Below are positions 32,276-33,508 of a stretch of DNA of 64,000 nt, one piece after another. Positions within the stretch are counted from its first letter, which is position 1. The number at the start of each line of letters is the position of its first letter. Position numbers and translations under genes: made by a program. The stretch lies in NCBI GenBank assembly GCA_963708025.1, contig CAVPSB010000013.1:352001-416000 (forward strand), given 5' to 3'. Source of the stretch: an uncultured Candidatus Rokubacteria bacterium. Lineage in GTDB: Bacteria; Methylomirabilota; Methylomirabilia; Rokubacteriales; DASRDR01. The notes beneath the pieces were generated by a model. That model was not told where the DNA came from, made no database searches, and saw only the letters and a list, made by a program, of their open reading frames with translations.

Positions 32276-32314
32276 GGTACCGAGGCGCGTGGTCTCCCCC
32301 TTGTATATTGACTC

Positions 32315-32482
32315 CGAGTCGGACCGCTCATGAGAGCGTGGTCCGTTGCCTTGGACGTGACAGATCGTTTCCCCCTGGGTCTGAAGAGGCCGTGGGTGAG
32401 CGTGGGTCGTCACGTCCGATCCTTGACGAGCCCGAACAGTTGCCAGGGCCGCCAGAGCCCGCATCCTGCAAGGTCGGGCCAG
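32315..32482 (+). ncRNA. Bridge RNA of the IS110 element (predicted)
   Basis: 5' hairpin 32320-32345; target loop in stem 32353-32361/32409-32417 with guides TTTCCCCCT and GGGTGAG; donor loop in stem 32430-32435/32474-32479 with guides ACAGTTGC and TGCAAG. Confidence 0.85.
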
Positions 32483-32499
32483 AAAGGAGCCACCGCTCC

Positions 32500-33450
32500 A
32501 TGAGTGAGGGTGCACGGTTCGTGGGCATCGATGTGGCCAAAGACCGCCTGGACGTCGCGGTCTGCCCGACGGACGAGCGCTGGACCGGAGGCAATGATCC
32601 GGCCGGCATCGAGGCCCTGGGGGAGCAGTTGGTCCGGCTCGCCCCCCAGCTCGTCGTCCTGGAAGCCACGGGCGGCTTCGAAGTCCCGCTCGTCGGCGCC
32701 TTGGTCGCCCGCGGGCTGCCCGTGGTGGTCGTGAACCCGCGCCAAGTCCGGGACTTCGCCAAGGCGCTCGGCCGTCTGGCCAAGACCGACCGCATCGATG
32801 CCACCGTGCTGGCCCTGTTCGCCGAGCGGGTCCAGCCGGCGGTCCGGCCCCTGCCCGATGAGGCCACACGGGAGCTCCAGGCGTGGCTGGCGCGGCGACG
32901 CCAATTGGTGGAGATGATCACGGCGGAAGAGAATCGCCGGCAGCAGGCCGCGGCCCCGATCCGGCGCCAGATCGAGGGCCACCTCCGGTGGCTGCGGCGC
33001 CAACTGGCCGAGCTCGAGCGGGACCTGACCGCCCGGGTGCGCCGCAGTCCGGTGTGGCGGGAGTCCGAGACCCTGCTGCGCAGTACCCCGGCGGTGGGCC
33101 CAGTCCTGGCGCGGACGCTGCTGGCTGACGTGCCGGAACTGGGCCGCTTGAACCGCAAGCAGATCGCCGCGTTGGTCGGCGTGGCGCCCTTCAATCGCGA
33201 CAGCGGCCCGCGCCAGGGCCACCGAAGCATCTGGGGCGGCCGCGCGCCGGTGCGCGGGGTGCTGTACATGGCGGCCCTCGTCGCCACTCGGTGCAATCCG
33301 GTCATCCGCGCCTTCTCCCAGCGACTGTTGGCCGCCGGCAAACCGTGGAAGGTGATGCTGACCGCGTGCATGCGCAAACTGCTGACGATCCTCAACGCGA
33401 TGATGAAGCATCGCACCGCCTGGAAACCGGCCCCTGAACTTGGGGCTTGA
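32500..33450 (+). CDS. IS110 family DEDD recombinase/transposase (316 aa)
   Basis: AAGGAG RBS; GIDVAK, LEATGG, KTDRIDA, C-terminal NRDSG motif; intact. Confidence 0.95.
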
Positions 33451-33465
33451 CAACGGAGACAGTTG

Positions 33466-33508
33466 CTCACCCTGGCCCTCTCCCCCCGGTGGGGGGAGGG
33501 AACAGGAG
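33466..33508 (+). repeat. Right part of the family B repeat interrupted by IS110
   Basis: CTCACCCTGGCCCTCTCCCCCGGTGGGGGGAGGGAACAGGAG. Confidence 0.85.

Follow-up and report, generated by a model that had tools for sequence, protein, structure and literature searches.

Does the insertion sequence that interrupts a repetitive extragenic palindromic (REP)-like repeat in an uncultured Candidatus Rokubacteria bacterium carry its own RNA guide to that repeat? We addressed this question in a window of 64,000 nt (contig CAVPSB010000013.1, positions 352,001 to 416,000 of the forward strand; coordinates below are those of the window), where a first-pass annotation had described an IS110-type recombinase at 32291-33508 together with a bridge RNA programmed for the repeat. 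We consider it highly likely that segment 32300-33467 on the plus strand is an autonomous IS110-group insertion sequence working like IS621, and its sequence indicates that this IS110-type element is complete and probably still mobile.

An IS110-group element with an intact recombinase

The element runs from a CT dinucleotide at 32300-01 to another at 33466-67 and measures 1,166 bp with this core counted once. The wider span of the first-pass annotation contains a real element, but the parts outside 32300-33467 are flank. A non-coding left end (LE) of 200 nt (32300-32499) precedes the recombinase gene, and a right end (RE) of 17 nt (33451-33467) follows it. Both copies of the element in the host genome are bounded by CT and lack terminal inverted repeats and any duplication beyond the core, and paralogous empty sites carry a single CT within ...TCCCC-CT-CACCC... 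(for example C25:144976 and C13:439344). The features of the ends and of the gene are as follows.

32293..32299, plus strand: left target (LT) TCTCCCC, of which only TCCCC (32295-99) falls within the guide-covarying positions
32300..32301, plus strand: CT core, left copy
32302-06, plus strand: right donor (RD) TGTAT, overlapping the -10 box
32304-09, plus strand: -10 box TATATT of a putative split promoter, TATNNT-like in most relatives
32483..32489, plus strand: Shine-Dalgarno-like AAAGGAG, 10 nt upstream of the ATG, read from the sequence
32500..33450, plus strand: recombinase gene, 316 aa
33447..33452, plus strand: -35 box TTGACA of the split promoter, overlapping the stop codon
33459-65, plus strand: left donor (LD) ACAGTTG
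33466-67, plus strand: CT core, right copy
33468-72, plus strand: right target CACCC

The open reading frame (ORF) is in frame from the ATG at 32500 to the stop at 33450 and encodes an N-terminal RuvC-like DEDD domain and a C-terminal Tnp domain (Pfam DEDD_Tnp_IS110, PF01548, 5.6e-25; Transposase_20, PF02371, 3.2e-17), which bears out the intact DEDD recombinase of the first-pass annotation. It scored 221 bits against NCBIfam NF033542, 'IS110 family RNA-guided transposase' (cut-off 140), and among structure chains it matched the IS621 transposase (8wt6_A, E 7.8e-39, phmmer) and ISCro4 (9t56_A, E 3.5e-38). The catalytic residues of IS621 are D11, E60, D102, D105 and S241 in the available part of the structural study (PMC11208158). 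We found that D11, E55, D97, D100 and S235-G236 of the present protein align with D11, E60, D102, D105 and S241-G242 of IS621, the numbering of PDB chain 8wt6_A being offset by +2 relative to the IS621 residue list.

The left end is predicted to form a two-module bridge RNA

Both the minimum free energy (MFE) fold and the centroid fold of the LE gave a 5' hairpin followed by two internal-loop modules, designated the target-binding loop (TBL) and the donor-binding loop (DBL). The left and right target guides (LTG and RTG) were assigned by the target pairing rules given in the accessible part of PMC11208160, and the left and right donor guides (LDG and RDG) by the same rules, with the core within all four pairings. 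Handshake guides lie at positions 81-82 and 166-167 of the IS621 bridge RNA according to the available text of PMC11208158; by analogy, the bases that directly follow the RTG and the RDG on their 3' side were taken as the handshake bases here. The predicted RNA comprises the following features.

32321..32344, plus strand: 5' stem-loop, seen in both folds; some relatives have a variable form or lack it
32351..32419, plus strand: TBL module, with basal stems 32351-61/32409-19 and 32363-66/32405-08
32368-76, plus strand: LTG UUUCCCCCU (DNA TTTCCCCCT), read part 32370-76, pairing with TCTCCCC-CT
32378-91, plus strand: distal stem-loop of the TBL
32394-400, plus strand: RTG GGGUGAG, pairing with CT-CACCC
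32401, plus strand: C, putative handshake base of the TBL
32430..32479, plus strand: DBL module of 50 nt, with stem 32430-35/32474-79
32436-43, plus strand: LDG ACAGUUGC (DNA ACAGTTGC), pairing with ACAGTTG-C
32446-60, plus strand: distal stem-loop of the DBL
32467-72, plus strand: RDG UGCAAG, with conserved CAAG at 32469-72, pairing with CT-TGTA through one G-T pair
32473, plus strand: G, putative handshake base of the DBL

All strings, flanks and ends on which the first-pass annotation had built its proposal lie where it placed them, including the stem GGACGTGAC/GTCACGTCC (32353-61/32409-17). The second stem, GCCCGA/TCGGGC (32430-35/32474-79), was confirmed as well, and the MFE fold reproduces both stems. 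We then asked how often such strings arise by chance in 20,000 dinucleotide-preserving shuffles of the LE. Singly, TCCCCCT appeared in 732 shuffles, GGGTGAG in 949 and ACAGTTGC in 48. TCCCCCT and GGGTGAG in the right order and no more than 60 nt apart appeared in 13, and the combination with ACAGTTGC added appeared in none.

Guides, ends and stems covary across relatives

Protein searches identified relatives in 14 of 60 related genomes. A species collection gave at least 548 relatives, of which the best 80 (55-67% aa identity) were kept; the metagenome-assembled genomes (MAGs) that carry these 80 are labelled as Nitrospirota, Methylomirabilota, Chloroflexota, Gemmatimonadota, Actinomycetota, Acidobacteriota, Myxococcota and others. 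Ninety-two loci were near-full-length, and the 76 with both ends alignable fell into 54 distinct groups of LTG plus RTG, each represented by its first locus, with L023 left out as degenerate. Element ends were set by alignment columns, as regular-expression anchoring was ambiguous or empty in 26 of the 92 loci for the LE and in 25 for the RE. The ends proved to be conserved among relatives as CT-TGTAT... and ...ACAGTTG-CT.

The RTG follows the flank to the right of the core. Once three groups without an aligned right-end CT had been dropped, 40 of 51 groups had an RTG whose reverse complement was identical to the five bases that follow the core on the right; four of the five matched in 6 groups and three or fewer in 5. 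The mean match was 4.59, compared with 1.52 +/- 0.15 for shuffled pairings (maximum 2.14), and none of 10,000 shuffles reached the observed value. The LTG test, likewise on 51 groups (L063, L074, L013 and L023 dropped), was anchored at the core. Match rates from -5 to -1 were.61,.86,.82,.96 and.94, those of the core C and T were 1.0 and.75, and those from -9 to -6 (.29-.35) were no better than shuffled; the total of 7.24 of 11, against 5.64 +/- 0.13 for shuffled pairings, was reached in none of 3,000 shuffles. The left guide in this clade reads about 5+2 nt. The guide role that the first-pass annotation gave to TTTCCCCCT is therefore upheld, but the length of its match, 8 of 9 with a U-G wobble, was overstated: since the LTG covaries only at -5 to -1 plus the core, the wobble, at -6, lies outside the zone that is read. 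A free-sliding 7-mer test of the LTG had a high background (4.93 vs 3.97) because loops and flanks are both C-rich, and it was replaced by the core-anchored test.

On the donor side, LDG and right-end 7-mer agree completely in 48 of 50 relatives, and variants of the LDG covary with the end (ACAGTCG in 8, ACAGCTG in 3, ACGGTTG in 3, ACAGTTA in 1 and ACGGCTG in 1). The RDG is constant only for CTTG plus a C or T at the fifth position, with positions 6-7 varying freely, and the RD sequence TGTAT is near-invariant, probably because it overlaps the -10 box. The right-donor match with one wobble that had been claimed holds for the CTTG(Y) pairing; since the RD is near-invariant while RDG positions 6-7 vary, the sixth pair may be a coincidence. 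The putative handshake bases behaved consistently: a pair between the base 3' of the RTG and donor position 7 is found in 51 of 51 cases, one of them a compensatory T:A (L004), and target position 7 is paired with the base 3' of the RDG in 48 of 53 cases, the others being two wobbles and three mismatches.

The stems gave a similar picture. In the alignment of 51 sequences, 87.3% of stem cells were paired, compared with 75.9% after shuffling and 32-50% with a slid partner, and double changes were seen in 20 of 30 stem pairs overall and in 14 of 15 in the TBL stem. Covariation upholds an LE RNA with two stem/internal-loop modules. Taken together, the covariation of guides with flanks in homologues, which the first-pass annotation had named as a check on its proposal, and that of the stems support the IS621-type bridge-RNA architecture that it had proposed.

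Two loci differ from the rest in arrangement. Downstream of the recombinase gene of L078, on a Nitrospirales contig, the right-end motif GACAGTTGCT occurs twice at a distance of 62 nt, and the sequence between the two occurrences repeats the final part of the gene. The arrangement looks like a tandem right-end duplication or a nested partial copy. L023 (G015 C12) is a distant relative with 38% aa identity and one internal TAA stop; it has AT-rich sequence in place of the TBL region, keeps a DBL-like part and an ACAGTC end, and is probably a decayed copy.

The element interrupts a REP-like repeat

The host genome (8.17 Mb, 71% GC) contains exactly two copies of the element, and neither solo bridge-RNA copies nor further IS110 relatives were found in it by blastn (word size 7) or tblastn (E <= 1e-3). 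The REP-like repeat also hosts the second copy (G000 C15:72514-73681), at a different occurrence in the genome. Of 1,168 bases, one differs between the two copies of the element; the change is synonymous, so that the encoded proteins are identical. Both interrupt a composite repeat whose first half reads CCCTCTCCC-ttcca-GGGAGAGGG-yt-GGGGTGAGGG followed by about 20 nt, and whose second half reads GGT(CT/AC)CCCC, the CT core, and CACCC-tgr-CCCTCTCCCCC..GGGGGAGAGGG. At the present site the repeat is laid out as follows.

32240..32274, plus strand: left part of the composite repeat, with a hairpin of CCCTCTCCC (32240-48) and GGGAGAGGG (32254-62)
32265-74, plus strand: GGGGTGAGGG, inverted partner of the target arm
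33476-87 and 33491-500, plus strand: right REP hairpin of CCCTCTCCCCCC and GGGGGGAGGG, after the right target CACCC

The right 40 nt of the site fold with z = -5.5. The same left-part arrangement is found upstream of copy 2 and of 12 of the 39 empty sites of the 11-mer CCCCCTCACCC; a CCCTCTCC-like unit follows within 8 nt at 30 of these 39 sites, and 12 have the composite form, with a GGGGTGAGGG-like unit upstream too. The guide-fitting 12-nt string TCCCCCTCACCC occurs at 11 sites, all of them empty (4.5 expected), and the guide-perfect 14-mer TTTCCCCCTCACCC at two sites in the genome, both unoccupied. Genome-wide there are 184 CCCTCTCCC-N3-12-GGGAGAGGG hairpins and 78 CCCTCACCC-N1-6-CCCTCTCCC units. 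The target fits the description of REP or bacterial interspersed mosaic element (BIME)-like sequences, namely short GC-rich imperfect palindromes in many copies, and the site here is intergenic. It lies between two minus-strand genes, an M24 peptidase gene on the left (30959-32176), whose start faces the element, and a GFO/IDH/MocA oxidoreductase gene on the right (33520-34515), whose stop faces it.

Near-identical sequence was present in 20 public runs, which come from 17 soil, bog and sediment studies. A 1,224-nt contig from one of these runs (X3) carries the element, with six differences, at a third and different site, which reads ...CATGGCT followed by TCCCC-CT on the left and CACCC then CCCTCTCCCCC on the right; the same guides are obeyed there. 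The location of copy 2 in the same type of repeat and the X3 site agree with the REP-like target named in the first-pass annotation, and guided insertion of the element accounts for the interruption of this repeat at two places in the genome.

A putative split promoter and a proposed mechanism

Joining of the RE to the LE would give TTGACA-17-TATATT (33447-52 and 32304-09). In 47 of 50 relatives the -35 and -10 boxes are likewise spaced by 17 nt, and the -35 box is TTGACA or TTGACT in 40 of 50. We propose that the element excises as a circle, in which the RE-LE junction, carrying the motif seen here, would act as a sigma-70 promoter and drive transcription of a bridge RNA that covers about 165-185 nt of the left end. 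In the REP-like repeat, the LTG would then bind the bottom strand of TCCCC-CT and the RTG the top strand of CT-CACCC by base pairing, and the LDG and RDG of the second loop would do so with the ends of the element itself once these are joined (ACAGTTG-CT-TG). Strand exchange at the CT core would be carried out by a tetramer of the DEDD+Ser recombinase bound to this RNA, and the insertion would leave no duplication besides the core.

One contig from an oligo-dT RNA library (X16) covers 32234-32613 as a diverged copy with 5 substitutions and 7 gaps. It has a T at 32294, so that its left flank reads TTTCCCC and matches all 7 nt of the LTG, and small deletions at 32304-32310, in the -10 region.

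Evidence against an IS621-like element and alternative explanations

Several observations weigh against an active element working like IS621. The folding z-score of the whole region is weak (-1.83, with 8 of 200 shuffles folding equally well), for which reason covariation was used as support instead. The covariance-model scan suggested by the first-pass annotation came out negative: with Rfam 15 at E <= 10, no match at 32100-33700 reached its gathering score and no bridge-RNA family was found. The CCCCCTCACCC 11-mer is barely enriched in the genome (39 sites vs 31 expected by base composition), copy 2 has C instead of T at -5 and forms a true U-G pair there, and the presence of only two copies despite 11 empty TCCCCCTCACCC sites suggests that activity may be low. 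No RE-LE circle joints or empty-site joints were found among four runs, whose repeat contigs are fragmentary, so that the missing joints are not evidence of absence. Contigs of the X16 library cover parts of the element, and DNA carry-over is possible there.

Moreover, some relatives lie at sites that mismatch one guide. The right flank of L040 is GTGTG where the guide predicts GACAC, while its near twin L061 matches, and L059 and L053 mismatch the LTG in their left flanks. One Gemmatimonadales (CAVWRM) assembly has five copies (L052, L054, L057, L058 and L070) whose right flanks all match; the left flanks of L052, L054, L058 and L070 differ from the LTG. Such sites resemble half-matched insertion or later recombination between copies, on which a 2026 preprint on half-match recombination may bear, as far as its available part goes.

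We then considered whether the guides act together with a structural gate, the recombinase also recognising the adjoining REP hairpins in a 'dual-match' manner, as a preprint on ISPpu10 reports in its accessible part (10.64898/2026.03.19.712850). The guides read only about 12 nt in a genome of 8.2 Mb, all three observed insertions lie within the composite form of the repeat, and the strong hairpin (z = -5.5) begins 4 nt past the right target. However, T at -5 is largely limited to composite sites, so that the guides alone explain the choice of site. Flanks of relatives, for the 38 of 51 sites with enough flank (mononucleotide shuffles, RNA parameters), are also not generally structured: mean z values were -0.12 (left flank), -0.50 (right flank) and -0.89 (joined site), and values below -2 were seen at 5%, 16% and 18% of the sites, respectively. 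A gate is not general to the clade. With about 5+2 nt read on the left and 2+5 on the right, the present element could gain the rest of its specificity from the repeat hairpins through an ISPpu10-like gate; such a gate we regard as unlikely. If it did exist, the composite CCCTCTCCC/GGGGTGAGGG repeat would represent a safe harbour shaped by co-evolution, and the element, with 1,166 bp, a 50-nt donor module and a 17-nt RE, would represent an unusually compact, widely transferred bridge system.

Another explanation is that the full architecture is present in an element that is immobile in this host, as a recently arrived or silenced passenger. The two copies beside 11 empty 12-nt sites and two perfect 14-nt sites, as well as the lack of circle or empty-site joints among the four runs, would fit such a passenger. 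However, the ORF is intact with all catalytic residues present, the single difference between the copies is synonymous, and near-identical copies occur across the 20 runs, and at another site in X3. We consider immobility in this host quite improbable. Finally, a chance match of C-rich loops to C-rich repeats, with the left end being a structured 5' untranslated region (UTR) of the transposase mRNA, could draw on the 71% GC of the host, the C-rich target and the occurrence of each single 7-mer in about 4-5% of shuffles, but it is effectively refuted by the rarity of the joint strings, by family-wide covariation of the loops with flanks and ends, which cannot come from a UTR role, and by the conserved CT-TGTAT and ACAGTTG-CT ends, which argue against mis-set boundaries of the relatives.

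Relation to known IS110 elements

An IS110-group insertion sequence working like IS621 thus remains our preferred explanation, and the element has the IS110-group (IS621-like) features of protein, ends, core, two-module RNA and target and donor guides. IS621 of E. coli, as described in the available parts of PMC11208160 and PMC11208158 and in 8wt6, has the same two domains and catalytic residues and a bridge RNA in its left end with a 5' stem-loop, TBL and DBL. The LTG and LDG are likewise of top-strand sense and the RTG and RDG complementary to the top strand, the CT core lies inside the pairings, and the RTG and RDG are each followed on the 3' side by handshake bases. In IS621 a promoter is split across RE-LE, as the conserved motif of the present element would be, and a REP element is the natural target. 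In contrast, the LTG here reads about 5+2 nt, whereas 7+2 is implied for IS621 by its 11-bp target with nine non-core positions, and the DBL module has 50 nt, whereas that of IS621 spans nucleotides 110-177, both IS621 values being from the same excerpts. The two proteins are about one third identical by eye over residues 5-304, the RE here is as short as 17 nt, the -35 box overlapping the stop codon, and the host is a 71% GC environmental bacterium. The ends of IS621 may be like ACAG...CT-TGTAT, strings of which the text of the paper has 0 occurrences.

The closest named insertion sequence among the annotated records searched was ISMno7 from Methylobacterium nodulans plasmids, with 54.8% aa identity over residues 7-310; at less than 60%, the present element is a separate insertion sequence. 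ISMno7 shares the ends of the present element (CT-TGTATCT... and ...ACAGCCG-CT) and the same two-module left end, and its own LDG, ACAGCCGCT, matches its own end, but its guides are different, as is its target (..GAGC-CT-CAGTC). ISPpu9 and ISPpu10 of Pseudomonas putida are similar by description, being IS110-family elements that insert in REP or conserved intergenic stem-loops in the published text available; the small RNA of ISPpu9 lies downstream of its transposase, whereas the RNA of the present element lies upstream. The IS1111 group is characterised, in the available part of PMC11208160, by a guide RNA in a long right end and by subterminal inverted repeats of 7-17 bp; the present element has an RE of only 17 nt and its structured RNA in the LE, which places it outside that group.

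The only Rfam family aligning to the TBL and DBL region was RF02234 (sX15, a Xanthomonadaceae sRNA), on the opposite strand. It aligned over its full length to 32338-32482 on the minus strand with 22.9 bits (E 0.38; gathering score 55), and to the minus strand of three relatives (L045 1337-1483, L074 1349-1503 and L026 1339-1499) with 40-41 bits (E 0.002-0.0035). According to PMC3300014, asX7 is complementary to sX15, and sX15 has 10 homologues in S. maltophilia. Together, sX15 and asX7 may represent opposite strands of one IS110 bridge-RNA locus.

The first-pass annotation had called the class known and had suggested that this orthologue and its target specificity might not be. The class was described in 2024; in the available text of PMC11208160 it is published together with its REP targeting and thousands of orthologues, and bridge RNAs are predicted in 85.7% of the ISfinder IS110 elements. 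That IS110 elements target REP sequences has long been known, and Durrant et al. refer to Tobes and Pareja 2006 and Choi et al. 2003. The present orthologue may itself be among those of PMC11208160; its 90% identity cluster has six members, none of them named. The element thus leaves the understanding of the bridge-RNA class unchanged, and its points of difference are the shorter LTG read length, the small donor module and the 17-nt right end. It represents a cleanly bounded natural bridge-RNA system with four guides and both handshake bases assigned, from a high-GC soil or bog lineage, in a clade found in MAGs labelled with many phyla. Such orthologues are raw material for the engineering of bridge recombinases and for studies of guide read length.

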